Source: Calothrix sp. HK-06
GTDB taxonomy: Bacteria; Cyanobacteriota; Cyanobacteriia; Cyanobacteriales; Nostocaceae
DNA: 16,720 bases
Direction: 5' to 3'
Assembly: GCA_001904745.1 (NCBI GenBank)
Contig: MRCD01000152.1
Coordinates: 1-16,720, forward strand
Shown here: positions 1 to 15,608 of the stretch, piece after piece
How the letters are laid out: each line of letters begins with the position of its first letter
How positions within the stretch are numbered: position 1 is the first letter of the stretch
The notes under the pieces: generated by a model
Told to the model about the DNA's origin: nothing
Databases searched by the model: none
Seen by the model: the letters and a program-made list of their open reading frames with translations, nothing else
Program-made: the position numbers and the translations under genes

Positions 1-98
1 TACATCACTATACGCACGTTCATGACGCTTGAAAAAACTTTGCGATTTACTGAATATAGTTTGTAGCGGTGCCTATGGATGGTGGGAAGATGCTTGGT
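1..98 (+). promoter_or_regulatory. candidate promoter / oriT region upstream of the relaxase gene
   Basis: In MobV plasmids oriT normally lies just upstream of the relaxase gene. The only structure seen is an imperfect inverted repeat (tacatcactata at 1-12 versus tatagtttgta at 54-64). The window is cut at position 1, so this cannot be judged properly. Confidence 0.2.
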
Positions 99-1826
99 AT
101 GACTAACTTTGCAGTTTGCCGAATCCAAAAGATAAAAAGCTGGGCATCGCTAATTAACAGTGCGATGCACGTAGCACGCGCGCATGAAATCGAGAACGCT
201 GATTTATCAATAAAAAATGTTTCCTTAATTGATGGCGCCGACGGTAAGGACATCAAGGAAATGTTTTTAGAAAAAATCGGCACCCAGAAGATACGCTCGA
301 ATGCAGTGCTGGGCATCGAAATGCTCTTGACCGCTAGTCCCCAATACTTCCGACCTGATAATCCAGACCAAGCTGGATTCTATATCCAAGAACGAGTAGA
401 CAATTTTGCTGCTGCTTGTACCGATTGGTTACTGACTCGTTATTACGGTAAAGTTGTCCAAGCTACAATGCACTTGGATGAATCGACTCCACATATCCAC
501 GCTTATATAGTACCCCTGGATAACAGAGGAAAACTTAATGCGAAGGGATTATTCCACGGGCGCCATAAACTCTCAGAATTATTAGATAGTTTTGCCCGCG
601 CGGTTGAACACCTGGGTATCAAACGCGGAGTCAAAGGAAGCAAAGCCAAACACCTTGATATAAAAAAATATTACGCTGCTGTAAACTGCAAGTCACTCCA
701 CATTAATTTAGATGATGTACTGCCGATACCAAACGATAATCAATCGGCTTTTGCATACCGTGAGTTAATCAAAGAAATTCTCCAACCCCAACTGGATATT
801 CTGAATCATCAAATCAATGACCGTGATTTACAACTACGGGAGAAAAAACATATCGAGCAGACTGCACAAGCTAGCGAGCGCGAAAGACAAAAGTTAGAAT
901 CGCGTGTGCAAAACTTAGCCTGGACTTTAGAATTATGGCAAGCGCAAGCTAACTTGTTACGCGACTTACCTTTAGAAGAGGTCGCTTACCATTTGGGGCT
1001 GCATTTAAATAGTAAAGGAATTTGGGAGGGTAATGGTTCTTCATTACGAATAGTCGGCGCCAAGTTTTACGATTACAGCGGCGCGCAATATGGTAGTGGT
1101 GGCGCTATTGATTTGGCGATGCATTTATTGCAGTGTAACTTTCGGCAAGCTGTTGCTTGGTTACATGAAATTTTTGGAGAGTCTGATTGCTTGCGTGCAG
1201 TTACCCATCATGCTAGAGAACAAACCCAAGAAATTATCTCTACCGAACGAGTACCAGAATTTGTGGCGCCTGACAGTGACCAAAGTCGATGGCATGATGT
1301 TCGTAATTATTTAGTGGACACTCGTAAGTTACCTGGCAATTTTATAGATAATCTACATGCTGCTGGGTTGATATATAGTGACGCGCGTGCAAATGCTGTT
1401 TTTGTAATGCGGTCGATGGAAAATGAAGTTACGGGCGCCTTTTTACGTGGAACATATGGATTTAACAACACTTTCTATGGTTTAGCCAAGGGTAGTAAAC
1501 GCAGTAAAGGTTGGTTTCATTTTACTGCTGGTGGACAAGGTGAGGATAAGATAATACGCACGGTTCTTACAAAATCCCCAATTGAAGCGTTATCAATCGC
1601 AGTGCTAGACCATTCCCTACTGGAGAAAACTATATATATAGCTATTGACAGTCCTCGGTGTATGCCTGTTGAGTTCCTAAGTTACTTTAAAAATATTCTT
1701 GCTGCTTATGATAACAATGCTTCGGGGGAAGAAATAGCAGGCGCCCTCTTAAAAGTTTTACCGCAAACTACTCGACTTAAACCTTCATGCCAAGATTGGA
1801 ATCAACAGTTAATTTTGATGAGGTAA
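99..1826 (+). CDS. MobV-family (Mob/Pre) relaxase with a C-terminal DUF3991/Toprim-like domain
   Basis: The ORF is open from GTG 69. ATG 99 gives MTNFAVCRIQKIKS, a typical Mob/Pre N-terminus. HLDESTPHIHAYIVP matches the HxDExxPHxH metal-binding relaxase motif. The middle is coiled-coil (QASERERQKLESRVQNL). The C-terminal half has GSGGAIDLAMHLL..AVAWL (DUF3991-like) and KSPIEALS .. AIDSP .. AYDNNASGEE (Toprim-like acidic motifs). Confidence 0.85.
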   Translation: MTNFAVCRIQKIKSWASLINSAMHVARAHEIENADLSIKNVSLIDGADGKDIKEMFLEKIGTQKIRSNAVLGIEMLLTASPQYFRPDNPDQAGFYIQERVDNFAAACTDWLLTRYYGKVVQATMHLDESTPHIHAYIVPLDNRGKLNAKGLFHGRHKLSELLDSFARAVEHLGIKRGVKGSKAKHLDIKKYYAAVNCKSLHINLDDVLPIPNDNQSAFAYRELIKEILQPQLDILNHQINDRDLQLREKKHIEQTAQASERERQKLESRVQNLAWTLELWQAQANLLRDLPLEEVAYHLGLHLNSKGIWEGNGSSLRIVGAKFYDYSGAQYGSGGAIDLAMHLLQCNFRQAVAWLHEIFGESDCLRAVTHHAREQTQEIISTERVPEFVAPDSDQSRWHDVRNYLVDTRKLPGNFIDNLHAAGLIYSDARANAVFVMRSMENEVTGAFLRGTYGFNNTFYGLAKGSKRSKGWFHFTAGGQGEDKIIRTVLTKSPIEALSIAVLDHSLLEKTIYIAIDSPRCMPVEFLSYFKNILAAYDNNASGEEIAGALLKVLPQTTRLKPSCQDWNQQLILMR

Positions 1827-1831
1827 GTTAT

Positions 1832-2072
1832 ATGAAAGCAACAGAGTGAGAAAAAATATCCAAACATTGCTCGCTGGATAGACGAACATACTGGTTGGAT
1901 TGAGATTGGTTATAACGTTGATAGTCCTCTTAATTCTTATATCCGCGCGATTGACTGTGGTGGGATGTTTTGAGAGGGAAAGGAGAGTTACGAAACTGTA
2001 GAGGAAGCACTGCAAGATTTAAATGCTGGACTGGAAGATGTTTTAGAAGAAATTTACGGCACCGATAATTAA
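1832..2072 (+). pseudogene. decayed small conserved hypothetical gene (frameshift plus TGG-to-TGA nonsense)
   Basis: ATG 1832 reads MKATE and then hits TGA at 1847. Shifting one base continues as EKKYPNIARWIDEHTGWIEIGYNVDSPLNSYIRAIDCGGMF, then TGA at 1971-1973, then EGKESYETVEEALQDLNAGLEDVLEEIYGTDN, with stop at 2070-2072. The GGMF-stop-EG context looks like GGM(F/I)WEG with Trp TGG mutated to TGA. Recognition of the family is from memory only. Confidence 0.4.
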
Positions 2073-2093
2073 TTTTATTGAGAGGAATTTAAT

Positions 2094-2465
2094 TTATATT
2101 GTGATTGAGCCGGGAGCATCCAAAAAGATTCCCAAATGGGCCTCGCATTTGACAAATTGCTTGCTGTTCCTCAATTACTAAAGGTTCTCTATATAATTTG
2201 GTGCCATGCTTTTTAGCATAATCTACAGCTTGCTCAAATTTCTCAACGCGCTCCTTTTGCTACTTGACCTGCATTTCCAGAACGCCTGCATTTCGTCCGT
2301 AAGATGGAAAAACATTTTAATCCCGTTGATGTCAATAGCTGCTCCTCGTACTTCGTTCTCTACGTAAAAGTATTTTACTGGTAAATCTAAAAGTTGACTG
2401 TACCATTGAGCAGCTGCAACAACATCATTAACAAAATAAAATATAGCTTGAACACTCTTAAACAT
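2094..2465 (-). pseudogene. VOC / glyoxalase-bleomycin-resistance family gene broken by frameshifts
   Basis: The N-terminal part (ORF 2223-2465) reads MFKSVQAIFYFVNDVVAAAQWYSQLLDLPVKYFYVENEVRGAAIDINGIKMFFHLTDE and is VOC-like. The reading frame then degenerates. A different frame downstream encodes VEKFEQAVDYAKKHGTKLYREPLVIEEQQAICQMRGPFGNLFG, with stop at 2094-2096, resembling the usual C-terminal DPFGN.FG end of VOC proteins. Confidence 0.5.
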
Positions 2466-2471
2466 ATTTAC

Positions 2472-3011
2472 TTATTCTATTTTTTGTAGTCGGTGCCTAA
2501 ATTCCAAATCTATAATATTTCTAGCTCCTATGAACAATACAATTTCACGCTCAGTTGGAGAAAGCCAAATTTGATATAACTGTTCATCATATTCTTCGGC
2601 TTCAAGTATTGTACCTACTTCCAAATATTTACTTCCAAAAAAATCAGAATTACCAAAATGGAACTCTCCTTCTATTTTTAGTTTTGCTTGCTTCAATCGT
2701 CCGCTCGTCTTGGCTTGGTAATAAGCTTGAGACAGTTCTTCTGAACTTGTAACCTTATAAACAAACTTCTCCATTAATGTATTACATTTTTCTTCTCCTA
2801 ACTTCATCATTAACTTTGATGGTGGTGGACTTTTATAATTTGCTATTTTCTCTTCGTTATCGCCCTTCGGGCAAACTACGTTAACAGCAATCTGAACTTT
2901 TAACTTTTGAATACAATACTTTACTGCTTCTTGTACACTGATATTATGAATCTCGGCTATTTGCTTAACATGAGCAATAAGCTCAAGCTTCCGAAAAGAA
3001 TTAGATTCCAT
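2472..3011 (-). CDS. hypothetical protein (179 aa)
   Basis: An intact ORF with an ATG start and a protein-like composition. The N-terminus (ELIAHVKQIAEIHNISVQEAVKYCIQKL) could be a small DNA-binding helix pair. No family was recognised. Confidence 0.5.
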   Translation of the reverse strand: MESNSFRKLELIAHVKQIAEIHNISVQEAVKYCIQKLKVQIAVNVVCPKGDNEEKIANYKSPPPSKLMMKLGEEKCNTLMEKFVYKVTSSEELSQAYYQAKTSGRLKQAKLKIEGEFHFGNSDFFGSKYLEVGTILEAEEYDEQLYQIWLSPTEREIVLFIGARNIIDLEFRHRLQKIE

Positions 3012-3371
3012 ATTTATTGATGAATGTAAACGTCAACAAAGTATTACTATCCGCTCGCTCCAGGCACCGATTAATCCTAATTATTTTTAATTAAACTCTA
3101 AACTACAGATAAATCAAAATTTTCTCCTTTTTCCTCAACTGCATACTCTAAAACTAATCTTTTTATTTCCTTAAAGTATTTTAGGTATGTTTCTACACTT
3201 TGGAAGATATAAAAGGTGAGAAGGTTGAAGTATATAGAGACACTACTGGTATTCCACCCACAGATTATGCGCGTATCATTGGACAGCTGTTAGTAAAAGA
3301 TTACAACTTAATTTAGAACAATAAGAAAGCCTACAACTTCTTCATATTAAATTAACTTTACATACTTGGGA

Positions 3372-4028
3372 TTACTTGAGCAACCCCAATTCCATGCCAG
3401 CGATTAATTGTTGGGCAAGAGGATAAAATATTTCTGCACGTTGTTTAGTCTTAGAACTAAACCCACCATTATCAACAATTTCGCATTTAATTTCAGTTTG
3501 TCCCGGTGACTGCTGCTTTATTACAATCCTACCAAGTTTACCAAGTTCTTTGTGCGTAAACACGTAATAAAAAGTAGTACCTTCTTGTTCCTTGCGAAAG
3601 CTAACTCCCGTGGGCATCTTCATGGGGGTTAAGATGACATTGCTTATTCCTACCATATCCATTACACCGTTCGGCCGTGCGATAAATAGTTCTACTTTAG
3701 GTGGTACAACCATAACAACCACAGCTTCGTTGCTAGGGTCATATTGTTGAAGAACGCTTGCAACTTCACGCTTAAATTCGACGCTTGTCATCCACAAGGC
3801 AACTGAACTATCAGCTTGGGGCACATAAAGAAAATCTTTCCGTGGCGCCTGTAAACCCAAAATGATACCTCTATCCCATTCGCTGTATTGTGCAAGAGCT
3901 ACCTGTAACGCAACACTTCCAAACACTTGTAAAAATGGTCGGTTTGGGTCGGTATGGATTTGCACTATGCCATTTTCAATCAAATGCTTGACCGAAAAAC
4001 TAATTGGGTCATTATGTGAATCTTTCAC
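3372..4028 (-). CDS. hypothetical protein (218 aa)
   Basis: An intact ORF with a GTG start at 4028, preceded by AGGTG 5 nt upstream. No recognisable motifs. Confidence 0.55.
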   Translation of the reverse strand: MKDSHNDPISFSVKHLIENGIVQIHTDPNRPFLQVFGSVALQVALAQYSEWDRGIILGLQAPRKDFLYVPQADSSVALWMTSVEFKREVASVLQQYDPSNEAVVVMVVPPKVELFIARPNGVMDMVGISNVILTPMKMPTGVSFRKEQEGTTFYYVFTHKELGKLGRIVIKQQSPGQTEIKCEIVDNGGFSSKTKQRAEIFYPLAQQLIAGMELGLLK

Positions 4029-4344
4029 GGATACACCTAGTTAACAAAGCTTCAATCATTGTACGGTAAGCGGCGCCAACTTTATGCTACAACCTGGCTC
4101 TCTATTAGCATCGGAACAAAAACCGGGTAATCGCAGTGTTACATGAATGTTACAGAAGTAACCAAGCGCTGTTCGCAGAGCGTGCCGTTAGGCATAACCC
4201 TTGATTTATAGCTCTTGAGATTGCTTAGTAATTTATAGAGTGAGCCACCACACCCCCAATCAAATCCTTATGCAATAAGACTTTTAAGCTTAACCCGGTA
4301 ATAGTTCCAATGATGCTTCTAAGCCTTCCCATGCGAATGTCGAA

Positions 4345-5298
4345 TCACCTATTAAGTGAGTTAACACAAGTATAAATTATTCTTTTAAATCCTTGTACTT
4401 TACGCTTAGGCATTGGCTTGTTAAATTCAGAGGTTAATATTGCTAATCCCTCATTCGATACCAAATAACTCGTATTATTGATTGGGCAATTTTGTGGTGT
4501 ACGTTTTTCAATCAACGCACTACAAATATGATGCCACGGAATGGCACCAAGTAAACTAGTACATATCACCATCAGCGAAGAAGGTAAGTCTACATAATTG
4601 CATAATATATCTTGTGATTTATGCAATATCCAGCAGTAAGACATTAGAGATATTAGTATATTTTCCTTACCAGGAGTAAATACATATTGTGAAGCAAGCT
4701 GGGCACTTGATGTCTGAATGTCAAGATATTGTTTGGTAATTTGACCAATTTGTTTTTTCAATTCATAATCAACTTCAATGTTGATAAAATCGTCGTTGTA
4801 CAAATTGTTTATTGCAATATCTACTAATCCAGTAATTATATCAGTTCGCTTGCGATGCTTCCTATAAATTTCAAATATTACTGTATCGAAACTAGCCTTT
4901 CTATCATTACATGTGATGGGGAGTAGTCTTGCTATATTGTACATCATTGGTTCGCGAAATGATAATTTCTGAGGGGTGTCTGATAAACCCACAAATGTAG
5001 GTTGAATCCCAAAATCCAATATTTCAAGAAATCGCTGCCTAAACAATGCCAATGATTGTTTGCGATTTGTGTGTTTTATTGATTTGTAAACGACGCTTTT
5101 TATGTTTGACCTATCAGGACAGTCGATGCTTACACCGGGAAAGTGGCGCCAGTAAGTTCGTTTATGCTCACCGCAAGCTAAACAAATTTCTCCGAAACAC
5201 GTGCCGCATACTGGTAGTTTATCGCAATACGTTTCATAATCGGCATCGGATGCCTTTATTATATCTCCGTCAGCTATACTGAATGCTGTTACACTCAT
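4345..5298 (-). CDS. hypothetical protein with an N-terminal Cys-rich zinc-ribbon (CoiA-N-like pattern)
   Basis: 317 aa. The N-terminus CDKLPVCGTCFGEICLACGEHKRTYWRHFPGVSIDC has CxxC..CxxC, then a basic-aromatic-His segment, then Cys. This is reminiscent of the zinc-finger N-terminus of CoiA-like proteins. The rest is unrecognised. Confidence 0.55.
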   Translation of the reverse strand: MSVTAFSIADGDIIKASDADYETYCDKLPVCGTCFGEICLACGEHKRTYWRHFPGVSIDCPDRSNIKSVVYKSIKHTNRKQSLALFRQRFLEILDFGIQPTFVGLSDTPQKLSFREPMMYNIARLLPITCNDRKASFDTVIFEIYRKHRKRTDIITGLVDIAINNLYNDDFINIEVDYELKKQIGQITKQYLDIQTSSAQLASQYVFTPGKENILISLMSYCWILHKSQDILCNYVDLPSSLMVICTSLLGAIPWHHICSALIEKRTPQNCPINNTSYLVSNEGLAILTSEFNKPMPKRKVQGFKRIIYTCVNSLNR

Positions 5299-5377
5299 GT
5301 TCGCTCAATTAATAATTATTTAATTACGAACATGCGTGCATTTGCGATGATATTGATTATAAATAATTAAGCGCATG

Positions 5378-5408
5378 AAGAGGAATGTACATAGGTTGTA
5401 CACCTCTT
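5378..5408 (-). terminator. candidate hairpin terminator / regulatory stem-loop after the 5420-5971 gene
   Basis: aagagg(aa)tgtaca-taggt-tgtaca-cctctt forms about 12 bp of stem with a 5-nt loop, starting 11 nt downstream of the stop codon at 5420-5422. It lacks a clean U-tract on the minus-strand transcript. Confidence 0.3.
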
Positions 5409-5419
5409 TACTCTGTGAG

Positions 5420-5971
5420 TTAATTCAAGCAATAGTTATTAAACCAAGTTATAATTCTGTTTCGATAGGCACTAGGGCTTCTGAATGATTCAAACATTCC
5501 ATTTTTTGAATAATTTTGTATATATTCTTGCATTTGCTTTTGATGCTCAAGTAATATTTGTTCTAATTGCTCAGGAGTGATTTCTGCTTTTTGGCTGGGG
5601 TTAGCTTTTGGGTATTGTTCCCGTAGAAATTTCATTTCTGTGTTGAATTCTGTTACGTATAAATCGCATGAATATTGATTGAGTAAAAGGATGTGTGATG
5701 GCTCAGTATCATCGGAGCCAAAGTCGATATTGTAATCTGGTTTTAATTTTTGGTATGCTTTTGCTAATTCTATGCTCATACCATCATTTTTTAAAAGGGG
5801 ATAGTACACATCGTAGTAGCTGAAGGTTTTGCTCCATCCACCGTCGCTCCAAGTTGCATTTGTTGCCTGGTAAAATATCCCAATCCATTGTTTCGTTTCT
5901 TCTACCACATTTATTGCTTCTTTTAGAAATTCAGGAGCGGGAATTGAGAGTTTGTAACTATGTTCAAACAT
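5420..5971 (-). CDS. hypothetical protein (183 aa from ATG 5971)
   Basis: The ORF track starts at 6061, but that would overlap the upstream gene by 62 nt. ATG at 5969-5971 (MFEHSYKLSIP) lies 28 nt after the upstream stop codon and is the more plausible start. No family was recognised. Confidence 0.5.
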   Translation of the reverse strand: MFEHSYKLSIPAPEFLKEAINVVEETKQWIGIFYQATNATWSDGGWSKTFSYYDVYYPLLKNDGMSIELAKAYQKLKPDYNIDFGSDDTEPSHILLLNQYSCDLYVTEFNTEMKFLREQYPKANPSQKAEITPEQLEQILLEHQKQMQEYIQNYSKNGMFESFRSPSAYRNRIITWFNNYCLN

Positions 5972-5999
5972 AATGTTTTTCTTGATAGTTAATAGTTTT

Positions 6000-6692
6000 T
6001 CAATTTGTTGGCGGCATAGGTTCAACTTTATACCGTTGCCGCATGATTCTGAATAACGCAATTCTTACCTCATAGGGGTTGCGATGTGAGTGAAATGTGA
6101 AACACATCCCGTTATTTAATGCCTTTATTTCATCCGATGTTAGTGGTACATGTTCTGCATAATTTGATACTCCTTGCCTATGTGCTATTTCTACCTGTTT
6201 ATTGATGCCAGGTTTTGTTTGTAGCAATTTTAAACATTCAATGGGTATTATTTCTACCATCCAGCTACCATCCGAAGTACTGAACCAGGCGGCACCTATT
6301 TTACATCTACCAAAATTGACGTTGAGGTTGGTAGCGTGCGACTGGGCAATGTTGATGCTATCGTATTCGCCTAATGTTTTTTGATGCCACACAGTATTAA
6401 AAACTTCCCATTTCGTCGGGTTTATTGTACTTTGTCGTACCATGTAACGAGCAGGTGTAGGCGCCAATAGTTGTGTGTCAACCCAAGTGTAGTAATCTTC
6501 CCCTATATACACAGCATGAATAAATGCGCGATTTTTTGATTCGTTTTTATGCAGAATCTCTACTTCGTACCCGTGCGCGAGGGCGACTGGTGTACCATCA
6601 CAAACCCAGGTGTTAGAGTTATCTATGTCTCCATCATATTCGGGGTAAGCGATATTGAGTTTCAAAGTTACCCATACTTTACTTTCACGCAT
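6000..6692 (-). CDS. hypothetical protein (230 aa)
   Basis: An intact ORF with ATG at 6690-6692, preceded by an extremely AT-rich leader. No family was recognised. Confidence 0.55.
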   Translation of the reverse strand: MRESKVWVTLKLNIAYPEYDGDIDNSNTWVCDGTPVALAHGYEVEILHKNESKNRAFIHAVYIGEDYYTWVDTQLLAPTPARYMVRQSTINPTKWEVFNTVWHQKTLGEYDSINIAQSHATNLNVNFGRCKIGAAWFSTSDGSWMVEIIPIECLKLLQTKPGINKQVEIAHRQGVSNYAEHVPLTSDEIKALNNGMCFTFHSHRNPYEVRIALFRIMRQRYKVEPMPPTN

Positions 6693-6967
6693 ATTTTTAT
6701 TAAAATTATTATTAATATAATTGTGTGAGCAATAACGATTTTATTAATATAAGTTATATTATATAAATCGATAGGGTCACATGCTATAACCGCAGCCAAT
6801 TCATTGATAAAATAAAATTCATGTTTACCTTCGTTATCCTCGATTACCAGCATATTGTCTACGTCGTAGTCGATTGAAGAATAACCATAAAGATAGATAA
6901 CTGGCGCCAGTTTAATATTTTTCAATAAGGGCGAAGGTTTGGGGACATTATGGTTAAAGCGCATCAT
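6668..6967 (-). CDS. possible small hypothetical protein (99 aa)
   Basis: The first ~70 aa look protein-like (APVIYLYGYSSIDYDVDNMLVIEDNEGKHEFYFINELAAVIACDPIDLY). The tail (AHTIILIIILIKICVKVKYG) is a translation of the AT-rich leader of the next gene, so the true 3' end is uncertain. Confidence 0.35.
   Translation of the reverse strand: MMRFNHNVPKPSPLLKNIKLAPVIYLYGYSSIDYDVDNMLVIEDNEGKHEFYFINELAAVIACDPIDLYNITYINKIVIAHTIILIIILIKICVKVKYG
6709..6752 (-). promoter_or_regulatory. AT-rich leader with a 12-nt direct repeat upstream of the 6000-6692 gene
   Basis: TTATTAATATAA occurs at 6709-6720 and 6741-6752, a 32-nt period, in an almost pure A/T stretch just upstream of ATG 6692. It is a possible promoter or operator, but low sequence complexity makes chance repetition likely. 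Confidence 0.2.
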
Positions 6968-7168
6968 CTTAATTACGTGTATACTTATGACGTATTTTAT
7001 ACTATAATTGTTTGATTATGATTAGCCACGTTAGTAAAATAAGTACCAGTTAAATTAGGTTACATAACTAGCGCTTATTGAATTACGTGATGGTACTGTC
7101 AAATAATGTTTTTTGTTAGCAATTTATCAATTGCTACCATACCATTGGATTCTGCTATTTTTGGTACC

Positions 7169-8047
7169 TTAAGCATAACAATTGAAAATATTTGTTTGAA
7201 TTGTCAATTCGTCGATATTTTGAGCATAGGCGATTGAAATTGCAGGGTCACGACTATTTTGATATTTACTACCCTTACTACCGCTAAGTTGACCACTTGC
7301 TGAGTCAGCACTGAATAGCAACCCAATAATTAAATTATCATCAAGCTGCCTTTTTGATAGTCCATAGCCATGTAGTTTTATATCGGGTCGCTGCATTTTT
7401 ATTGAAGTCAGTATCGAAAAGACTTCACTGTTTGGGCGCCGTTTTAACCCCCCAACCCCGACCCAGGCATTTTGCTGAATAGTATCACCGTATTGTGAAA
7501 GATGACAATTGTAGTCTGCTGCTGTTTTACCTTGTAGTATAGGTATTACATACGGGAGGTCACGTTCATCAAACTCCTCACAAACTTGGTCGTAGATATC
7601 CAGTAATTCATAATCACATTCCTCGTCAGCATACTCCATGAAACTCGCATGAAGCTCCACCATTGCTTCAAGATGAATATCTTTCAGGTGCTTTTTGATC
7701 TTATGGTATCGATGTATTGTTAAACGTTGATGTGCAGGGACATCGAGTTTTGTGAAATCAATTACCTCATCGAAGCATGGGTAGTCCTGGGTAGAGGCGC
7801 CGACGAGAGAACCACCCACTAACTTACTATTCAGGGCCCATTTATATATAGTACTTGCATATTTTTTTGTGGATGGGTAGGGTTTACCATTGAGTAGTCG
7901 CGTAAATCCGCAATCTAGCAACCAATCTTTGACGGGAAAGGTGGATTTACGATGTTCAATGCGATTGTAGGAAATGCATACTCTTAAAAAATCGCGTGTG
8001 CCCGATTTACCGCAGTTTGGCTGATTCCAGCCAGGAAAAAACAGCAT
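7169..8047 (-). CDS. DpdA-like TGT-fold protein (putative DNA-guanine / 7-deazaguanine transglycosylase)
   Basis: 292 aa. The ordered motifs match my memory of the DpdA / tRNA-guanine transglycosylase superfamily:
- MLFFPGWNQPN at the N-terminus;
- VCISYNRIEHRKSTF;
- WLLDCGFTRL, in place of the usual LDSGGF substrate-Asp motif;
- VIPILQGKTAADY, the (P)V(L/V)QG motif;
- VGVGGLKRRP;
- IKLHGYGLS, the LHGFG motif;
- FSADSAS, the SADS(M)AW motif.
ATG at 8045-8047. No HMM or structure search was possible. Confidence 0.6.
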   Translation of the reverse strand: MLFFPGWNQPNCGKSGTRDFLRVCISYNRIEHRKSTFPVKDWLLDCGFTRLLNGKPYPSTKKYASTIYKWALNSKLVGGSLVGASTQDYPCFDEVIDFTKLDVPAHQRLTIHRYHKIKKHLKDIHLEAMVELHASFMEYADEECDYELLDIYDQVCEEFDERDLPYVIPILQGKTAADYNCHLSQYGDTIQQNAWVGVGGLKRRPNSEVFSILTSIKMQRPDIKLHGYGLSKRQLDDNLIIGLLFSADSASGQLSGSKGSKYQNSRDPAISIAYAQNIDELTIQTNIFNCYA

Positions 8048-8741
8048 TATGTGTTTGGAGATAAGATTTAATGGCGTTTGCGATAAACTCTGCCAACTTC
8101 ACGGGTACGGCATTACCAATCATTTCTTCTAAATTAGTGTTTGTTTCATTACTGAAATCAAAGTTTGACGGGAATGTTTGAATCGCCGCACGTTCAAACG
8201 TAGTCAGTGGTCGTAGTTTTGAATTAATAGGCGCCGTATCACTTGGATGACCCTTATAACCCGGTGGTATCGGTCGATTCGTTCCCCGAATTGTGGGCGA
8301 TGGTTCCGAAATACTGAATACTGCTCGCCTTTTATAACTGCGTGCGTGTCTATAATAATGTTCGATGTTGAGACTATCGCCAAAATAATCACGCACCGTC
8401 ATTGGTTTGAATGACAATCCTGCGTTTAAATAGGGTAGTAACTCATGGTCGGCACCATTGAGTACACCCACACAGATGTAACGTTGCCTGTTTTGGGGTA
8501 CTCCACAATATGCGGCATTGAATACTTTTTCAGTTAATCCATATTTATTACGTTTTAATATTTCGATAACTTGTTTATATTTTTTGCTTTTTTGATAGCG
8601 TTCAACATTTTCCATTACGAATATTGATGGTTGAATGTATTCAATTAATTCAGCAAACCTGATACTCAAATCTCCGCGACCACTATCTTCATTACGGGAG
8701 CCAGCAGAGCTAAAATCTTGGCAAGGTGAATTATGTTTATT
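8007..8741 (-). pseudogene. 5'-truncated DNA (cytosine-5) methyltransferase remnant (motifs IV-X only)
   Basis: The frame is open from the stop at 8742-8744 and reads NKHNSPCQDFSSAGSRNEDSGRGDLSIRFAELIEYIQPSIFVMENV..GVPQNRQR..PSPTIRG..QTFP..GNAVPV. It is collinear with residues ~80-320 of the intact paralog at 9059-10045, roughly 60% identical by eye. Motifs I-III, including the FxGxG SAM-binding loop, are missing. Homology starts at the PCQ codons (~8721-8729). The start in the ORF track is only a TTG (an internal Leu of DLSIRF). Confidence 0.8.
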
Positions 8742-9058
8742 CTACAACGTAAAATCCGCCTCAAAAAGTAATTATAATTATACCTTCTACAAAGTAAGCC
8801 ATTGAAAAACCAATTTTATATTTTTTTAATTATTGAAGAAAATTCTAGGGAGGTCGGCGCCTGGAGCATTAGAGTTTTAGGCTTGACCTTCACTCTCAAT
8901 ACCATGCTTGTTCTTTAACGCACGGCTTGTTAAAGTTATTAGATTCAACAACCGCCTCGTATTTCTCATTAACAAGACTCCTTTTTTGTTAACTTTGCTT
9001 TCTGGGCATCGCAAGCTCCGTTCCTATATGGAACACAGTGAAAGACATTAACTTATTA

Positions 9059-10045
9059 CTAAATTTGTAAGCTAGGTACTAACTGTGTTGATTGCATTTG
9101 TTTAACATTCAACTCAATGTTATCTTTCATATATTGGAGCAAGCATCTTGCAAAAAACTCAGCTAACTTAACAGGTACAGCATTAGCAATCATTTGTTCT
9201 AAATCAGTTTTCGATTGGCTTTTTTCATCAAAATCAAAACTTTTGGGAAATGTTTGTATGTAGCTTCGCTCAATAGTAGTTAATGGACGTAAATCAGGAG
9301 TGAGAGGCGCCGCATCACCAGGATGTAATTTATAAGTTTTAGGAATTGGTCGGTTTACCCCTCTGATTGTAGGACTAGGTTCATCAATACTAAATATACC
9401 TCGTCTTTGATAAGTTCTAGGATGCCTGTAGTAATATTCAAGACCCAGCCTGTTTCCTAAATAATGCCTGATTGTAGTTGGTTCTTTGGATAAATTATAG
9501 TTTATGTATGGAATTAATGCGTTATCAATACCGTTTAATTCTCCTATACAAAAATATCTTTTTCTACTTTGAGGAACTCCGCAAAATGCTGCATTAATTA
9601 TTTTTTCTGTCAACCCATAACCACTATTTTTAAATATATTGATAACTTGGTTATATTTCTGGCTTTTTTGAAACCTATCTACATTTTCCATTACAAACCA
9701 TTTAGGTTTGACCGAAGCAATTATTTTAGCAAACGTGATACTCAAATCACCTCTTCCTAAATTCTCATTGCGCTTCCCGACACTTGAGAAGTCTTGACAA
9801 GGTGGACCAGAAATAATAATATCAGGTTTGAAACTGGTAAAATCATTATAATCGTTTAAATTGCCTAAGTCACAATTATAAATTTCATGCAAGAAGTTCT
9901 TTCTATAAATTTGTATTGCTGGCTCCCAGTTATCAAAAGCTGCTACTATTTTAAAACCTACATTTTGAAACCCTAGAGATAGTCCACCACAGCCAGCGAA
10001 TAAATCAATAGCTCTTAAACTTATCTCATGTGTTTTATTGCTCAT
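9059..10045 (-). CDS. DNA (cytosine-5) methyltransferase, intact
   Basis: 328 aa with the full set of C5-MTase motifs:
- I: IDLFAGCGGLSLGF
- IV: GPPCQDFS
- VI: ENV
- VIII: QSRKR
- TRD with PSPTIRG
- IX: QTFP
- X: ANAVPV. Confidence 0.9.
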   Translation of the reverse strand: MSNKTHEISLRAIDLFAGCGGLSLGFQNVGFKIVAAFDNWEPAIQIYRKNFLHEIYNCDLGNLNDYNDFTSFKPDIIISGPPCQDFSSVGKRNENLGRGDLSITFAKIIASVKPKWFVMENVDRFQKSQKYNQVINIFKNSGYGLTEKIINAAFCGVPQSRKRYFCIGELNGIDNALIPYINYNLSKEPTTIRHYLGNRLGLEYYYRHPRTYQRRGIFSIDEPSPTIRGVNRPIPKTYKLHPGDAAPLTPDLRPLTTIERSYIQTFPKSFDFDEKSQSKTDLEQMIANAVPVKLAEFFARCLLQYMKDNIELNVKQMQSTQLVPSLQI

Positions 10046-10165
10046 TTTAGTCTATAAACCTTAAAGATATTTTGTTGCCTAAATAATACCATAAAATGTT
10101 CGGATAAAACTGGGATTTTACAGAATAAAATTATCCGTATTAAATTTTAAATTTTGATGATTAAG

Positions 10166-11479
10166 CTAATCTTTGTAATTAGAAAATTTACCAATACTAG
10201 GGTCAAATACTACCTTACAAGTATCTGTTACGCCATTTCTGTTTTTAGCGACTATTATCTCCATAATTCTTTTATCACTAGTATTTGAGTTGTAATATTC
10301 ATCTCGATAAAGTAGTAGTCCTAAATCCATATCCTGTTCAATATCGCCAGAATCTTTAATATCAGCCATAGAAGGACGTTTATTACTTTGACCTTCTACA
10401 CCACGATTGATTTGAGCAAGAACTACAAATGGGACATTAAATATTTTAGCAATATCTTTACAAGCCCCACAATATTTACCAATGGCTTGCGCTCTATTTC
10501 CTGCTGCTCTATCCCCAAGCTTTTGAATATAGTCTAATACTACTAATCCTAATTCTCCTTTTTCAGATTCTACTCTACGAAGTGCAGAACGAATTTTAGT
10601 GGGGGTTAGCTCACCTGCTGGAGTATCATCAATTATAATCGGTAATTCAGATAGATTAGATAAACCTTTTACTAAAGAATCATATTCCTCCTCATAAATT
10701 AGATTGTGCATCAGCCTTTGGGAATCAATACCTGTGTGCATAGAGAGGAACCTTTTAGTTAGTTGTTCCTCAGACATTTCTGCACTAAAAAACAATACTG
10801 GCTTATGGATACTGCTTGCAATATAATTAGCCAGATAACAGCCAAACCAGCTTTTACCCATAGATGGTCTAGCAGCAACTACAATTAAGTCTTGTTTAAT
10901 TAAGCCACCAATTAGAGTATCTAAGCCTGTTAAACCTGTAGGGTAAGCAGGAGACGAACCCTGCTCTATCCTATTCAATAAATTAGCTAAACACTCATTA
11001 ATGGGTTTAGGTTGGAATTTAGTTTTATTGTTAGTTGTAATATTAAATAGTTTTTGTTCAGATTGCTCAAATATTTGTTCTAATTCCGTACTAGTATCGC
11101 ATCCTAAATCTACTATTGTATGTCCTACTGATACTAATTGACGGCGTTGGTATTTATCCAGTACTAGGGCAGCGTAATGGTCTATATTTACTGCTGATAC
11201 AGCCCGGTTAAGAAGTTGAGATAATTTAGTGTCACCTCCTACTTTTTCTAAAAGTTTATGGTCAGCCAGCCAAGTAGAAACAGTCATTAAATCTGTTTGT
11301 TTATTATTTTGATATAGCAGTAAAGCTGCTTTATAAATTTGTTGATGACCATGAGTACAAAAAGATTCTACAGGAAGTATGTCAGCAAGTATACCCATAG
11401 CATTGGGGTCAAGTAAAATACATCCCAATATGGCTTCTTCAGCTTCGATATTTCCTAAAAACTGATTACTCTTCGACAT
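10166..11479 (-). CDS. dnaB: replicative DNA helicase DnaB
   Basis: 437 aa. The DnaB N-terminal signature is NIEAEEAILGCILLDPNAM. Walker A is ARPSMGKSWF and Walker B is LVVLDYIQ. The RecA-like C-terminus has LAQINRGVEGQSNKRPSMADIKDSGDIEQDMDL. There is no intein. The start overlaps the upstream gene by 14 nt. Confidence 0.9.
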   Translation of the reverse strand: MSKSNQFLGNIEAEEAILGCILLDPNAMGILADILPVESFCTHGHQQIYKAALLLYQNNKQTDLMTVSTWLADHKLLEKVGGDTKLSQLLNRAVSAVNIDHYAALVLDKYQRRQLVSVGHTIVDLGCDTSTELEQIFEQSEQKLFNITTNNKTKFQPKPINECLANLLNRIEQGSSPAYPTGLTGLDTLIGGLIKQDLIVVAARPSMGKSWFGCYLANYIASSIHKPVLFFSAEMSEEQLTKRFLSMHTGIDSQRLMHNLIYEEEYDSLVKGLSNLSELPIIIDDTPAGELTPTKIRSALRRVESEKGELGLVVLDYIQKLGDRAAGNRAQAIGKYCGACKDIAKIFNVPFVVLAQINRGVEGQSNKRPSMADIKDSGDIEQDMDLGLLLYRDEYYNSNTSDKRIMEIIVAKNRNGVTDTCKVVFDPSIGKFSNYKD

Positions 11480-12350
11480 TTGTTTTGTTAAATAAGTTGC
11501 TAAGTTGTTTGAGTTTATCCTGTGAAATTAATTTCTTTTGGTTATCTTGTATAACCACTGAAGATTGATTTGATGTTAATGGTGTCGATTGTTCACGAAT
11601 GTTAGGCTGTGCTTCGTCACGTATCATTGATAGTAAACAAGCAGCAGGATTTTCTACATTAGTTTTACTACTATACTCTTGAAAAGCTTCAATTGATAAC
11701 TTAACTTTATGATATTCGCGGCTGACTATTTCCTGCTTTAGTTTTGAATTAATCTTAATTCCCATTTCGTTGATTAATTGAAATATATCTAAGTTTTCTG
11801 ATTGAACATTCTTCTCATGAATTTCTCTGGTTATATAAATATCAGTTGTAGAGGAACTTGTATTAGATTGATTTACTCTTATAGGGACTATTTTTTTATC
11901 AGAGTGAACAGGAACTACCTCTCGTAATTGTGAGCGTAAACGTTCGCACTCGTCTCTAAGTTCGTAAATTTCTGCTACATGACCTCTAAGTTTTTCATTT
12001 TGATGTTTAAGTTCCCTAACCTCTGTTTCTAGTTCTCTAATTCTTTGCTTGGCAACTTCATGTAAAGTTTTAAGGCTATGGGGTCTTGGGTCTTTTTGTT
12101 CTAACGTATTTAATGTAGACTCCTTTTCATGTTGAATTTCGTGTATATATACTTTAATTTCATCCCATTTATAGAGATAAGAAATAGAACATCCTGCAAC
12201 ATTAGCAATCGAAGCAAATGTCAATGGTTGTTTTTGAGCAAGTATTTCTTGAATTGCTTTTAATACTTGCTCTTTTTTTTGTTCCTTTTTTTGGGCTTGA
12301 GTGCGACGCAGAACTTCAGCTTGTTTATCGCGATTATGATTTTTAACCAT
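11466..12350 (-). CDS. HTH plus coiled-coil protein, TnpC/DUF6262-like accessory protein of Tn554-type recombinase modules
   Basis: 294 aa. The basic N-terminus is followed by a probable HTH (PLTFASIANVAGCSISYLYKW) and then a strong heptad coiled coil (IRELETEVRELKHQNEKLRGHVAEIYELRDECERLRSQL). It overlaps both neighbours (8 nt and 14 nt). The family assignment is from memory of proteins found next to paired Tn554-like integrases. Confidence 0.5.
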   Translation of the reverse strand: MVKNHNRDKQAEVLRRTQAQKKEQKKEQVLKAIQEILAQKQPLTFASIANVAGCSISYLYKWDEIKVYIHEIQHEKESTLNTLEQKDPRPHSLKTLHEVAKQRIRELETEVRELKHQNEKLRGHVAEIYELRDECERLRSQLREVVPVHSDKKIVPIRVNQSNTSSSTTDIYITREIHEKNVQSENLDIFQLINEMGIKINSKLKQEIVSREYHKVKLSIEAFQEYSSKTNVENPAACLLSMIRDEAQPNIREQSTPLTSNQSSVVIQDNQKKLISQDKLKQLSNLFNKTNVEE

Positions 12351-14169
12351 TTGTTAAATCTCTTAATTGTGGTAGCCATTTATCCATTGCCTCGATAGTG
12401 GCTCTGGCTTCTTCTTTCGCTAGTTCAGCACCTGCTTGTCCTGCTTCTTCTAGTCTTTGATGTTCTCCTTTATACTGGCGTTCGTAGAGAGGTAATTTAG
12501 CTGTGCTAGGACGAAAACTAGAACAGCCATAGCATTTAGGGTAAAGATTAATAGGACAGGGCGTTTTGGGTTCAAGAACACAGTGTCCATAAACTACTAA
12601 GCGTGGGGCTATTTCGAGGTCAAGTTCGTGTGCTTTAGAATTTTTAATTAGGCTTTCTGGTAAAGTTTGCCAAGGAAGGAACTTGTTATCAGGGTTCATT
12701 AACAGTTCCTGAAAAGGCAAGTCTACTGCTGCTACCTGCTCCCTAGTAGGGGGTGCATAGTTTTGAAAAGTAGTACTACTTATTGTATGGTCAGCATAAA
12801 GTTTAGCAGCTTCAATACCGTATTTTACACGTATTTCTTGCAATCTGTTGTGGCGAGTAATTTTACCTGTAAAATGAGGTCTTTGCCCGTTGGTATCACG
12901 GATGTTTTCTTTTTCTATAAGTAAACGAATAATGCATACCATTGTATTTTCCTTGACATTTACACGGGGTGGAATTGGTAAGGGTTTCATGTTAGTAAAG
13001 GCTGGGTAAGAATCATTTTTTACATTTATAAAATGACAAAACAGATATGGATACTCTAACTCCAATGTTTGTCTTATCCATTGCTGTTGTTCTTCAATTA
13101 TTTTTCTAATTTCACGAGTGGCAGGTATTTGATGCCATCGCTTAGTTTTATGTTGATAAAATTTAATATACCATTTTTGATTTTCTTCCACTAAGCAATC
13201 AAATAACAATTGGCAAATATCTCCTGGACGAGCAGCAGTATACTCCTGTATTAAGTAATGACAAGCAATAAATGCAGGAATTTTAGATAGATTATTTTGA
13301 ATGGATGTGCGCGTTACTTCATCCAACCAGTCTGGGTCATTTTTAATTTCTTTGAGGTAATCACGCCGACGAATTAAGTATGATGAATTAAGCCCTAACC
13401 ATTCAAAAAAACATTTTAGATAGCTTAGTTTGTGATTGATGGTTTTATTGTCGCAATCCTTATAGTTATCTAAAAAACTTAGCAAGGCTTCGCGGCTAAT
13501 ATCGGTAGCTTCTTTGATGTTGAAATTTTCTACAATTTGTCCAAACTGCTTTAAATTTGTTAGAGAGTGTCTAATTCCTGACGGAGCAGAATAAGCTCTC
13601 GATTTGAGTAAGTATTGTATATAGTTTTTAACCTCTAATTTATACCATTGTGGTAAAACTTTTTGAAAATTAATTGATTGTGGATAAGGATTATCGTAGA
13701 AATGTCTTAAATCCCAAATATCATCATCTAAATAGAAAGGCGGCAATTTATTTTTTGTTTTGCCATCTATCCAACTTCGACAAAACGTTGAATTAAGTTC
13801 AAAGCTAGTACCGCAAAAGTGACAATGACACTTTTCTCGTGTATGTTTTGTTGTATAAATCCACCCTTTTTGTCCATTATATCCTACTTCATTACAAACA
13901 GGATTAGGACATTCTATATCAGGACGATAGTTGCAAGTATAGGTAGGAACTGAAGAAGTTAGAGATACCCACTTTTCACAATTACTACACATAAATCTAA
14001 TCTTACATTTTGAAGTGTCTTTAAAATAAGTTTTCTTAAGATTACTTTTCTGACAGTTTGGGCAAATAAATTCGCCTTTATAATCCTTCTCCCAATCCAC
14101 CTTTAATTGTCCGTGTAAAGTAGGATGAATAGAGATAGTAGAAGATTGTTGTTTAGTCATTAAATTCAC
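12343..14169 (-). CDS. tyrosine recombinase-like protein 3, with N-terminal zinc ribbons and a C-terminal Cys cluster
   Basis: 608 aa. The GTG start at 14167-14169 overlaps the upstream TGA (GTGA); an alternative ATG is at 14160. The N-terminus has CPNCQ..CSNCEKW and CPNPVC..CHCHFCG. The recombinase-like core has AARPGDICQL (Arg), TRHNRLQ (a degenerate HxxR box) and ADHTISSTTFQNY (His..Tyr). The C-terminus has CVLEPKTPCPINLYPKCYGC. Confidence 0.65.
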   Translation of the reverse strand: MNLMTKQQSSTISIHPTLHGQLKVDWEKDYKGEFICPNCQKSNLKKTYFKDTSKCKIRFMCSNCEKWVSLTSSVPTYTCNYRPDIECPNPVCNEVGYNGQKGWIYTTKHTREKCHCHFCGTSFELNSTFCRSWIDGKTKNKLPPFYLDDDIWDLRHFYDNPYPQSINFQKVLPQWYKLEVKNYIQYLLKSRAYSAPSGIRHSLTNLKQFGQIVENFNIKEATDISREALLSFLDNYKDCDNKTINHKLSYLKCFFEWLGLNSSYLIRRRDYLKEIKNDPDWLDEVTRTSIQNNLSKIPAFIACHYLIQEYTAARPGDICQLLFDCLVEENQKWYIKFYQHKTKRWHQIPATREIRKIIEEQQQWIRQTLELEYPYLFCHFINVKNDSYPAFTNMKPLPIPPRVNVKENTMVCIIRLLIEKENIRDTNGQRPHFTGKITRHNRLQEIRVKYGIEAAKLYADHTISSTTFQNYAPPTREQVAAVDLPFQELLMNPDNKFLPWQTLPESLIKNSKAHELDLEIAPRLVVYGHCVLEPKTPCPINLYPKCYGCSSFRPSTAKLPLYERQYKGEHQRLEEAGQAGAELAKEEARATIEAMDKWLPQLRDLTNG

Positions 14170-15608
14170 TTCCTTTTCAAATTTTCTAGTTGTTCTAGTC
14201 CTTTTAATCGAGCTTTTATTAAATCGCCGAGACGATTAATTTCAGTAACTCTTCTTTCTTGCATTAGATTTTCTGCTTGTTGTAAATCTTTTTGTAAGCT
14301 TGTATAATCAGCTTCTAACTTAGTCTTATCTTCTAAAGTTACTCGATGGTGGTCACAACTTAAACAGGCATAGCGAAGATTGCAATCACCTAACATGCTT
14401 GGTCGATGGCATTCTCCCAAAGGAGTACTAACTTTGAGAATCTCAGCTAATTTCTCGTATCTACGTTTTCTAGGTATAAAGCTAGTAACCTGACCATACA
14501 TATCGACATAACCTTTAGAATTAGCCTCTTTCTCTAATCGTTCCAAAGAACGTTTTCGATAATGTGGCAACATATCCAAAGAGCCATGACCCAAAACCGC
14601 AGCAATATATTCATCTTCTGCTTCGCAGTAAGCCATGATGCTAGCTTTAGTACGGCGAAAATGATGGCTAGTAAGATGAAACTTATTACCATGCTTATCT
14701 TTAAGGTTTACTTCTTCTCTAAAATCTTGTAACCAAAGTCTAATTGTATCAAAGCGTAAAGTTTCAGGTTTATAAACTGGCTCTACCTGAAATCTTTTAC
14801 CATTATAGCCATGATGTGAAACATCAACTTTACAAAATAATTTATCAAATTTAGAATTAGCACCAAATTGAACCTCCAAAAATTTCTGTTGCTCTTGAAC
14901 TAATTCAGCTACCAAATAATTAATTTGATAAAATCGCCAGTGCTTGCGTTTCTCTACCCAACGCAACAAAAACCACTTATCACCTTCCTGTTTTAAACAT
15001 TGACGAGGCATCCTAAGCATTTCGCCTATACGACATCCCAAAACAAGCTGTAGTCGAAATAGCCTTTCCAATGGTGCTGGAAAAAGGTCGAATTGCTGGT
15101 AAATTTGATAAAGAACTTCTTCTGGAATGGTCTCAATTTTCGGAGCTTGTTTTTTTATTTTAAATGGAGTGTATATTAATTTTAGCCATCCCTCTTCTGC
15201 CCATAGTTTTAGTGCGTAGACTATATCATTTTGACGTTGTTTTGTAGAACTTTGAGTTATAAATTCTCGCAATATAGTATCAGTTAAATCTTCTGGTTTA
15301 CTATACCCTTTAGACACTAAAAACTTGTCTAGCTGTTTTAAAACGCCATTTCTATGTCTAACAGTATCCAGCGAATGTTTTGCTCTAACACTTGCTAGAA
15401 CTGTTAATTTTGTTAACAATTTTAGCCAGGATAATGAAAAAGTATCAAAATAAATATTTTTAATACGACTAAAATCAGATTCATCTTTGGTATAACCTAT
15501 TGCTTCAGTTGTCCAAACATCTTTCTCTAATAAAGTGATATCTAACAATTTTTGACCAAATTCCGAATTACTTATCCTTGACTGTAATATTTCCAAAGGT
15601 AACATCAT
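14166..15608 (-). CDS. tyrosine recombinase 2 (Tn554 TnpB-like position), with a C-terminal Cys cluster and coiled coil
   Basis: 480 aa. Catalytic-type residues are GCRIGEMLRM (Arg), LTSHHFRRTKAS (HxxR) and VLGHGSLDMLPHY (His..Tyr). The C-terminus has CHRPSMLGDCNLRYACLSCDHH followed by a coiled coil. The ATG at 15606-15608 overlaps the upstream TAA by 1 nt. Confidence 0.8.
   Translation of the reverse strand: MMLPLEILQSRISNSEFGQKLLDITLLEKDVWTTEAIGYTKDESDFSRIKNIYFDTFSLSWLKLLTKLTVLASVRAKHSLDTVRHRNGVLKQLDKFLVSKGYSKPEDLTDTILREFITQSSTKQRQNDIVYALKLWAEEGWLKLIYTPFKIKKQAPKIETIPEEVLYQIYQQFDLFPAPLERLFRLQLVLGCRIGEMLRMPRQCLKQEGDKWFLLRWVEKRKHWRFYQINYLVAELVQEQQKFLEVQFGANSKFDKLFCKVDVSHHGYNGKRFQVEPVYKPETLRFDTIRLWLQDFREEVNLKDKHGNKFHLTSHHFRRTKASIMAYCEAEDEYIAAVLGHGSLDMLPHYRKRSLERLEKEANSKGYVDMYGQVTSFIPRKRRYEKLAEILKVSTPLGECHRPSMLGDCNLRYACLSCDHHRVTLEDKTKLEADYTSLQKDLQQAENLMQERRVTEINRLGDLIKARLKGLEQLENLKRK

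Follow-up and report, generated by a model that had tools for sequence, protein, structure and literature searches.

Why does a single G+C-rich palindrome, GGCGCC, recur 16 times in the left 9.3 kb of a Calothrix contig and then not at all in the remainder? The stretch that raises this question comprises positions 1–16,720 of contig MRCD01000152.1 (assembly GCA_001904745.1) from Calothrix sp. HK-06, a 16,720-nt sequence referred to here as the window, which carries two genes for C5-cytosine methyltransferases (MTases), designated MT1 and MT2. A sequence-only reading had proposed that GGCGCC is a highly iterated palindrome (HIP) enriched locally beside these genes, that it is the target of the MTases or part of that target, and that methylation-linked biased repair maintains it. 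Our analysis indicates that the window is very probably a plasmid-like contig of the Calothrix PCC 7103 lineage, in which GGCGCC has replaced HIP1 (GCGATCGC), the palindrome of most cyanobacteria, throughout the genome at ~1.5 per kb, such that the 16 sites represent the background density. For Calothrix PCC 7103 and D253, GGCGCC is already on record as the alternate HIP (Elhai 2015, Life 5:921, PMC4390886), and methylation-linked biased repair has been published there for exactly this hexamer and this genus; the finding in the window is thus a rediscovery, and our literature search returned no further paper joining GGCGCC with Calothrix. What is new here is that the palindrome is shared by a clade, that its sites are conserved above their flanks, that GGTGCC is in excess, that a cassette lacks the palindrome and that the MTase is insufficient to account for it.

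GGCGCC sites in the window

By exact matching, GGCGCC occurs at 16 places within 234–9311 and at none in 9312–16720 (Table 1), which corresponds to 1720 per Mb in positions 1–9311 and 957 per Mb over the entire window. In 200 dinucleotide-preserving shuffles of the window the hexamer occurs 0.97 times on average and at most five times, so that none reach 16, and in a maximal-order Markov model it ranks first among hexamers with z = 7.7, the runner-up reaching 3.9. Uniform placement of 16 sites would put all of them left of 9312 with a chance of ~9e-5. GGCGC is completed by C in 16 of its 18 occurrences in the window, which also has 16 copies of GCGCC, and the control palindromes number two (GCGCGC), one (CGGCCG) and zero (HIP1). 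Fourteen sites are distributed across eight open reading frames (ORFs), six of them within the relaxase gene, and the remaining two, at 4072 and 8856, are intergenic. The coding sites occupy all three codon phases (five in phase 0, read as Gly-Ala, three in phase 1 and six in phase 2), and no consensus is seen in the sequence flanking the 16 sites.

Recounting thus sustains much of the sequence-only reading, including the over-representation (16 against 0.97 in shuffles), the rarity of the control palindromes, the placement of the sites, the use of three codon phases and the absence of a flank consensus. A Markov comparison of the kind that it had called for, run on the window, places GGCGCC at the head of all hexamers, and its view of GGCGCC as a HIP-type signal at the level of DNA agrees with the completion of GGCGC, the phase usage and the lack of consensus. 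Fifteen of its 16 start positions are correct, the last being 9306 rather than 9307.

A palindrome shared by a Calothrix clade

Plasmid and chromosomal DNA of related Calothrix carries GGCGCC at 1.15–1.9 per kb, with an observed-to-expected ratio (O/E) of ~28 in the pooled relatives. The plasmids of NIES-4105 and PCC 7716 contain 52 sites in 45 kb and 62 sites in 42 kb, respectively, and chromosomal loci of 21 kb contain 30 sites in PCC 7103, 40 in PCC 7716, 35 in NIES-4105 and 33 in the Calothrix metagenome-assembled genome (MAG) C42. Three short metagenome contigs that carry an orthologous MTase show an equal density. HIP1 occurs only once in the window and the six relative loci, inside a GGCGCC-free island of PCC 7103. 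Since the chromosomes and megaplasmids of relatives are equally dense, the enrichment in the window is not local, and its 1.72 per kb corresponds to the background of the lineage. The HIP is common to a clade composed of PCC 7103, PCC 7716, NIES-4105, the C42 MAG and HK-06, plus the metagenome contigs. In keeping with a plasmid-like origin, parts of the left 8.7 kb of the window are ~80–98% identical at the nucleotide level to the NIES-4105 and PCC 7716 Calothrix megaplasmids, with ~90–98% over most aligned stretches and a single stretch at 80%.

These densities agree with those published for PCC 7103, where GGCGCC is the most frequent hexamer (O/E 30, 1535 sites per Mb), HIP1 is lost, two GrCGyC-specific MTases are present and the remaining three GrCGyC forms are under-represented; fragments of Calothrix D253 are likewise enriched (PMC4390886). 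The system seen here shares with that description the hexamer, the genus, the lack of HIP1, the MTase family and the depletion of the remaining GRCGYC forms, as well as the density (1150–1900 per Mb across the loci analysed here and 1720 in window positions 1–9311). It differs in that the strain is HK-06 and the DNA is of plasmid type, and in that the palindrome is clade-wide, whereas exceptional HIPs were termed sporadic, and possibly by-products, by Elhai (PMC4390886).

We note that the GGCGCC-free island of PCC 7103 (locus positions 12881–17597, 4.7 kb) has a G+C content of 0.444 compared with 0.397 for its locus, contains histidine-kinase and NMT1-type genes and bears the only HIP1 of the locus (at 16731); it has the appearance of DNA imported from a HIP1-type cyanobacterium.

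Conservation, variants and spacing of the sites

Conservation was assessed in pairwise alignments of four syntenic chromosomal loci, with the four hexamers flanking each site as controls. Between chromosomes GGCGCC is 71–92% conserved, compared with 32–71% for the flanking hexamers; in the pair with the lowest p value, 28 of 31 GGCGCC sites are retained as against 56 of 124 flanking hexamers (Fisher p 4e-6). The conservation of GGCGCC is also well above that of other all-G/C or CpG-rich hexamers, and 8 of the 10 window sites that can be aligned to Calothrix plasmids are shared. Within the relaxase gene, four of the six sites are common to PCC 7716, with GGTGCC and GGCACT found at the differing ones. 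These alignments support the view, already taken in the sequence-only reading, that GGCGCC sites are actively maintained.

A single class of one-base variants is enriched. For GGTGCC/GGCACC, 64 occurrences are counted where 15 are expected in 96 kb of plasmid-type DNA (window 1–9311 together with the NIES-4105 and PCC 7716 plasmids) and 12 where 8 are expected in 42 kb of chromosome, and this pair is the commonest state opposite non-conserved sites. In the same plasmid-type sample GACGCC/GGCGTC occurs twice against 15 expected, and the remaining single-base variants show O/E values of 0.1–1.3. The GGTGCC excess would be the footprint expected of a central C that is 5-methylated and deaminating, as Elhai's model requires. 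A regular spacing of sites is essentially rejected, with intervals near-exponential (pooled coefficient of variation (CV) 1.09), barring a deficit below 50 bp, where 4 are found and 19 expected.

The methyltransferases and their predicted target

MT1 matches PF00145 end to end (2–320 of 324), possesses the FAGCGG, PPCQ, ENV, QSRKR and NAVP motifs, and is recognised by PADLOC (PDLC03270, E 5e-142). It is 83% identical at the amino acid level and 86% at the nucleotide level to a gene on the PCC 7103 chromosome (KB217478.1 8004469–8005410) whose coordinates are those of ‘GrCGyC MTase 2’ in Elhai's listing (PMC4390886). MT1 is also 67% identical to an Anabaena cylindrica MTase encoded directly behind a gene of 366 aa with a match to Pfam RE_HindVP (E 1e-154); Anacy-0949 and Anacy-0948 are tabulated as a GrCGyC pair of MTase and restriction endonuclease (REase) by Elhai (PMC4390886). 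No REase gene is found in the window or beside the chromosomal MTase copies of the clade, and the window MTases are REase-less members of their family rather than a restriction–modification (R-M) system.

Both MTases' target-recognition domain (TRD), YYRH(P/A)RxYxRR(G/A)(I/V)FSI(D/S)EPSPTIRG(V/T)NRPIP, is kept in the homologues from A. cylindrica, Crinalium, Lyngbya and Rossellomorea. This domain, a comparison of which the sequence-only reading had recommended, is conserved across the GRCGYC (BsaHI/HgiDI/HindVP) family. It also agrees with Neely & Roberts 2008 (PMC2413257), who describe a TI motif, an upstream R that is conserved and a position occupied by G/A; they treat BsaHI, HgiDI, HgiGI and HindVP as one GRCGYC family and show that M.BsaHI, the one member tested, methylates the central C and shields GGCGCC from HhaI. 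By homology to M.BsaHI, MT1 is predicted to methylate the same base, giving GG(m5C)GCC, where m5C is 5-methylcytosine. MT1 thus resembles the MTases of BsaHI/HgiDI/HgiGI/HindVP (and AcyI-type) R-M systems in having all m5C motifs and the conserved TRD. It differs from them in that the MTase of the window, as of the whole HIP clade, has no REase, in that MT2 is truncated, and in that the target form GGCGCC is ~28-fold enriched rather than avoided.

MT2 opens in frame at ..SPCQDFS, within motif IV, and is 98% identical to an intact 317-aa gene on the NIES-4105 plasmid, with homology ending at 8728. Since no N-terminal fragment is found elsewhere in the window, MT2 is, from its sequence, a 5'-truncated pseudogene at a putative rearrangement breakpoint. 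The GGCGCC sites at 8230 in MT2 and 9306 in MT1 fall on homologous codons (T-A-P and A-A-P), which also carry GGCGCC in the chromosomal MTase orthologues of PCC 7103 and PCC 7716; these two sites are therefore inherited and not independent. The proposal that the two MTase genes are the agents of the enrichment survives insofar as the target of their family, GRCGYC, includes GGCGCC, but not insofar as both would act, given that MT2 is a truncated pseudogene. Indeed, the clade retains a syntenic chromosomal orphan copy of the GRCGYC MTase, so that the genes in the window need not be the responsible ones. Capture of the MT1 region as a chromosomal segment is rejected, as its homology to the chromosomal orthologues is limited to the gene itself.

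The PCC 7103 chromosomal locus encodes, at positions 5204–8495, a C5 MTase of 658 aa together with a 435-aa ORF lacking family matches; the two lie 1.5 kb upstream of the orphan GRCGYC MTase, and the syntenic place in PCC 7716 contains short ORFs only. This segment is possibly an inserted R-M-like pair.

A methyltransferase alone does not account for the palindrome

To place the family in a wider setting, sites were counted in loci fetched from 80 species genomes, each encoding an MTase homologue. In 47 of the 80 this homologue has, just upstream, a HindVP-type REase gene (PF09519) of full length, and these loci contain 25 GRCGYC sites where 446 are expected. An excess of GGCGCC is seen in two genomes only, NIES-4105 and the C42 MAG (68 against 2.4), which are the closest and lack both the REase and HIP1. 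Another 20 genomes have an MTase homologue whose fetched flanks contain no REase homologue, and in them GGCGCC is found twice against 26 expected. Rivularia sp. T60 and Calothrix sp. CSU_2_0 are examples of close relatives of the clade that have an REase-less homologue without the HIP. An REase-less GRCGYC MTase thus appears necessary at most, and not sufficient, and the sequence-only reading fails where it would let the MTase suffice as the cause; another factor besides the MTase sets the HIP clade apart. In those 20 genomes the mixed forms GGCGTC/GACGCC partly recover (39 against 71 expected, O/E 0.55).

As a separate observation, the other palindromic form, GACGTC, is near zero in the same 20 genomes (7 against 49 expected), like GGCGCC, which hints at extra enzymes acting on GGCGCC and GACGTC there.

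The site-free right part

The right part of the window encodes a DnaB-type helicase and a cassette composed of three tandem tyrosine recombinase genes and a DUF6262 gene. DnaB begins 14 nt before the DUF6262 gene ends, an overlap which places both in one operon, and the gene arrangement indicates that the recombinase trio, DUF6262 and DnaB constitute a single predicted minus-strand operon. The nearest plasmid relatives of DnaB are found on Pleurocapsales plasmids (~71% nucleotide identity) and not in Calothrix, and the four-gene cassette recurs without DnaB or MTase in plasmids of Nostoc, Brasilonema and Anabaena (~69%). In Nostoc pNPM8 there are 22 HIP1 sites in the flanks and none in the cassette (gap 8098–15617), and in the Anabaena WA102 plasmid there are six in the flanks and none in the cassette. 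The cassette is palindrome-free in every host examined, whichever HIP the host uses. The 9.3-kb edge, previously taken for the end of a local enrichment, is instead where a HIP-free mobile module begins. Indeed, the 7.4-kb site-free stretch of the window exceeds all 261 inter-site intervals in 180 kb of related Calothrix DNA, where only two intervals are longer than 3.5 kb (6.4 and 4.7 kb, the latter being the HIP1-bearing island of PCC 7103).

Two explanations of the cassette are equally good, namely that it has been resident too briefly to gain the palindromes of its host, or that it has been selected to avoid restriction-prone sites. According to the MTase survey, HindVP-type GRCGYC REases are frequent among cyanobacteria, and HIP1 contains GATC. 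Three observations make ‘just arrived’ too simple a description: GATC is as scarce in the right part as in the left (none found, 24 expected), the cassette is poor in GATC, CCGG and GGCC in all three hosts, and MT1, which lies downstream of DnaB, is of the clade type. General avoidance of palindromes is rejected as the full cause of the site-free right part, being only modest (Markov O/E 0.82–0.86 on the right and 0.90–0.92 on the left).

The contig ends 107 bp past the first recombinase gene, and the 107 bp that lie beyond the window in a contig of the Logan assembly show no overlap with the window start that would indicate circularity.

Mechanism and alternative explanations

We consider methyl-cytosine-biased mismatch correction to be the most likely mechanism, at a little under an even chance, with direct selection as its main rival. 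In the published proposal, G(m5C)-directed mismatch repair ratchets sequence toward the palindrome (PMC4390886). The 16 sites of the window very probably arose as point substitutions in coding and non-coding sequence of 9.3 kb of long-resident DNA, and the associated enzymes are REase-less GRCGYC m5C MTases with the central C as the target predicted by homology. On the repair model, hemimethylated G(m5C) sites would bias mismatch correction after replication, so that substitutions creating or restoring GGCGCC would be retained and existing sites shielded (Elhai's ratchet), and deamination of m5C would steadily leak sites to GGTGCC. A more specific version, in which GGCGCC, far from being a sporadic by-product, is a stably inherited and actively maintained replacement of HIP1 in the whole clade, driven by REase-less GRCGYC MTases together with a methyl-cytosine-reading repair factor, is offered only tentatively, and the further suggestion that these MTases also travel on plasmids and on the recombinase-trio element is put forward with similar reserve.

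Several observations weigh against this account. The high conservation of sites is equally predicted by direct selection; the 20 MTase-bearing genomes described above have no GGCGCC excess; and neither Vsr, a MutH-like protein nor another repair gene is found in the window by Pfam, NCBIfam or PADLOC. The GGTGCC excess is opposite to what efficient T-to-C very-short-patch conversion leaves, and as such Vsr-like conversion would deplete GGTGCC, the excess argues against it. The genome-wide status of the palindrome is drawn from the chromosomes of relatives (PCC 7103, PCC 7716, NIES-4105 and the C42 MAG). Finally, in the Logan assembly of SRR4407853, positions 25–8659 and 9673–16827 of the window lie in separate contigs, such that 8660–9672 is bridged by the NCBI contig alone, the breaks falling in MT2 (8659) and MT1 (9673).

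According to the main rival, direct natural selection keeps GGCGCC for a function, with methylation only the way in which the sites are read; candidate functions include a mismatch-repair strand, recombination or uptake, or chromosome-organisation signal (proposed for HIP1). The conservation of sites far above adjacent and other all-G/C or CpG-rich hexamers is what such a function predicts, and like conservation above expectation is reported for HIP1 (PMC5861425), but biased repair predicts equal conservation. The alike density in six loci, at about one site per 0.6–0.9 kb, the scarcity of sites less than 50 bp apart (4 spacings, 19 expected) and the persistence of the trait in a clade of at least five strains also favour selection. 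However, the spacing is otherwise near-exponential (CV 1.09), with no strong regularity, no reader protein is identified and Elhai argues that exceptional HIPs may be by-products (PMC4390886). Taken together, we judge direct selection to be possible although rather unlikely. A further reading, in which the contig is an assembly artefact that fuses two molecules or organisms across similar MTase genes and so creates the contrast between left and right, draws on the Logan breaks inside MT2 and MT1. Against it, MT1 is one intact ORF with uniform 80–86% nucleotide identity to clade orthologues across 9673, and its 5' third is linked to DnaB and the cassette in a Logan contig; the longest exact string shared by MT1 and MT2 is 14 nt, so that no k-mer collapse is expected; and the right part shows the same extreme GATC avoidance as the left. 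A chimeric contig is therefore unlikely, with little probability left to it. A repeat-induced cause of the Logan breaks is rejected, given that identity between MT1 and MT2 never runs beyond 14 bases, and one possibility is that a third, chromosomal MTase copy in HK-06 lies behind them.

That the enrichment is confined to this region of the replicon and caused by its two MTase genes, as the sequence-only reading had it, might be suggested by the 16 of 16 sites in 9.3 kb ending at the MTase genes with none beyond, and by a target of the MTase family that includes GGCGCC. Yet the same or higher density is found in chromosomal loci of PCC 7103, PCC 7716, NIES-4105 and the C42 MAG and in two megaplasmids, one of the two MTase genes is truncated, and the zero-site stretch is explained by a cassette that is palindrome-free in other hosts too; the local version is not borne out and is very improbable. 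Still less credible, to the point of being nearly negligible, is that protein coding (Gly-Ala as GGC-GCC) or a longer dispersed repeat lies behind the excess. Although Gly-Ala in phase 0 accounts for five of the 14 coding sites, three phases are used, two sites are intergenic and GGCGC is completed by C in 16 of 18 cases, with GCGCC itself numbering 16. In addition, relatives carry single substitutions at homologous sites, which, with the lack of a flank consensus, indicates that the sites are not copies of a repeat. We therefore retain the assignment of the window to the GGCGCC-bearing lineage, with biased mismatch correction as the preferred mechanism.

Other features of the window

Besides the two C5 MTases, DnaB, DUF6262 and the three tyrosine recombinases, the window encodes a MobV-type relaxase, a DpdA-like protein and six ORFs within 2472–6967 that have no match in Pfam, NCBIfam or PADLOC (Table 1). 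The relaxase gene is ~90% identical at the nucleotide level to that of the Calothrix PCC 7716 plasmid p1. With six sites in 1.76 kb (3.4 per kb) it carries about twice the lineage mean, and the PCC 7716 homologue has five. The DpdA-like ORF belongs to a DNA 7-deazaguanine transglycosylase family (PF23859), overlaps the 3' end of MT2 by 41 nt and is 96% identical at the nucleotide level to a NIES-4105 plasmid gene that is split there by an insertion sequence. It is very rare, with 12 relatives among 5.8 billion proteins; a conserved operon around it is rejected, as the other context examined shares that ORF alone.

Table 1. Positions of GGCGCC sites and of genes and other features in the window
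Feature	Positions	Strand	Assignment and remarks	GGCGCC
GGCGCC site starts	234, 559, 1056, 1265, 1434, 1740, 3844, 4072, 5145, 6460, 6903, 7435, 7796, 8230, 8856, 9306			16
Site-bearing block	234..9311	none	1.72 per kb	all 16
MobV-type relaxase	69..1826	+	Mob_Pre + DUF3991 + Toprim-like	6
DpdA-like ORF, 292 aa	7169..8047	-	Pfam PF23859, E 5e-10	2
MT2, 5'-truncated C5 MTase	8007..8735	-	motifs IV-X and TRD kept, I-III missing	at 8230
Junction spacer	8729..9058 (330 bp)	none	no homology to any fetched locus	at 8856
MT1, intact C5 MTase, 328 aa	9059..10045	-	GRCGYC family	one, at 9306
DnaB-type helicase	10166..11479	-	Pfam	none
Mobile cassette, four genes	11466..16720	-	Pfam	none
DUF6262 gene	11466-12350	-	Pfam	
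Tyrosine recombinases, three tandem	15608-16720, 14166-15608, 12343-14169	-	Pfam Phage_integrase	

The oligonucleotide signatures of the two parts of the window, 1–9311 and 9312–16720, differ beyond the HIP. CTAG is scarce on the left (14 against 32 expected) and not on the right (31 against 24), and GTAC shows the opposite (34 against 32 on the left, 9 against 24 on the right). GATC occurs once in the window, at 7697, against ~56 expected, and is strongly depleted in related Calothrix loci too; a GATC MTase and REase pair is tabulated for PCC 7103, where GATC has an O/E of 0.16 (Elhai 2015, PMC4390886). The KpnI/Asp718 site GGTACC is found once against 12 expected in the 96 kb of plasmid-type DNA, and 6 times against 6 in the chromosomal loci.

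Relation to known systems and significance

Like HIP1, GGCGCC is a bare G+C-rich palindrome present about once per kb, in genes and spacers and in all phases, spread by substitution, conserved above expectation and linked to orphan MTases, which in the case of HIP1 recognise its core. It differs in that HIP1 is an octamer, whereas GGCGCC is a hexamer confined to one Calothrix clade, and in that the enzymes associated with HIP1 are specific for GATC and CGATCG, as opposed to a GRCGYC m5C MTase family. In the very-short-patch repair of E. coli, Dcm and Vsr give rise to an excess of CCWGG through T:G correction. The likeness proposed here is that the target of an m5C MTase becomes over-represented through repair that favours methylatable sequence; the differences are that the window has no recognisable Vsr gene, that GGTGCC is enriched rather than depleted, and that the enrichment of GGCGCC is orders of magnitude stronger. 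Tn554-like or ‘recombinase in trio’ (RIT) elements contain three tandem tyrosine recombinases, and the cassette of the window resembles them in gene content, combining such a trio with a small DUF6262 gene in unrelated plasmid contexts. It differs in being transcriptionally coupled, as judged by gene arrangement, to DnaB.

No new category is opened by the window, which rediscovers the result of Elhai 2015 for the same hexamer and genus. The residual value is comparative, and lies in the inheritance of the palindrome by a clade, the roughly twofold better protection of sites compared with adjacent sequence, and a sole enriched near-miss that is the deamination product. Combined with these comparative data, the insufficiency of the MTase in 20 other genomes narrows the question of how HIPs originate to a missing second factor. 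Judging by the palindrome-free cassette, the density of a HIP could serve as a marker of cyanobacterial DNA that is mobile or was recently imported. If the tentative reading of GGCGCC as a clade-wide replacement of HIP1 is true, the clade would represent a natural experiment on how HIPs are made, and palindrome-free islands, such as the cassette and the HIP1-bearing island of PCC 7103, would provide a residence-time clock for imported DNA.

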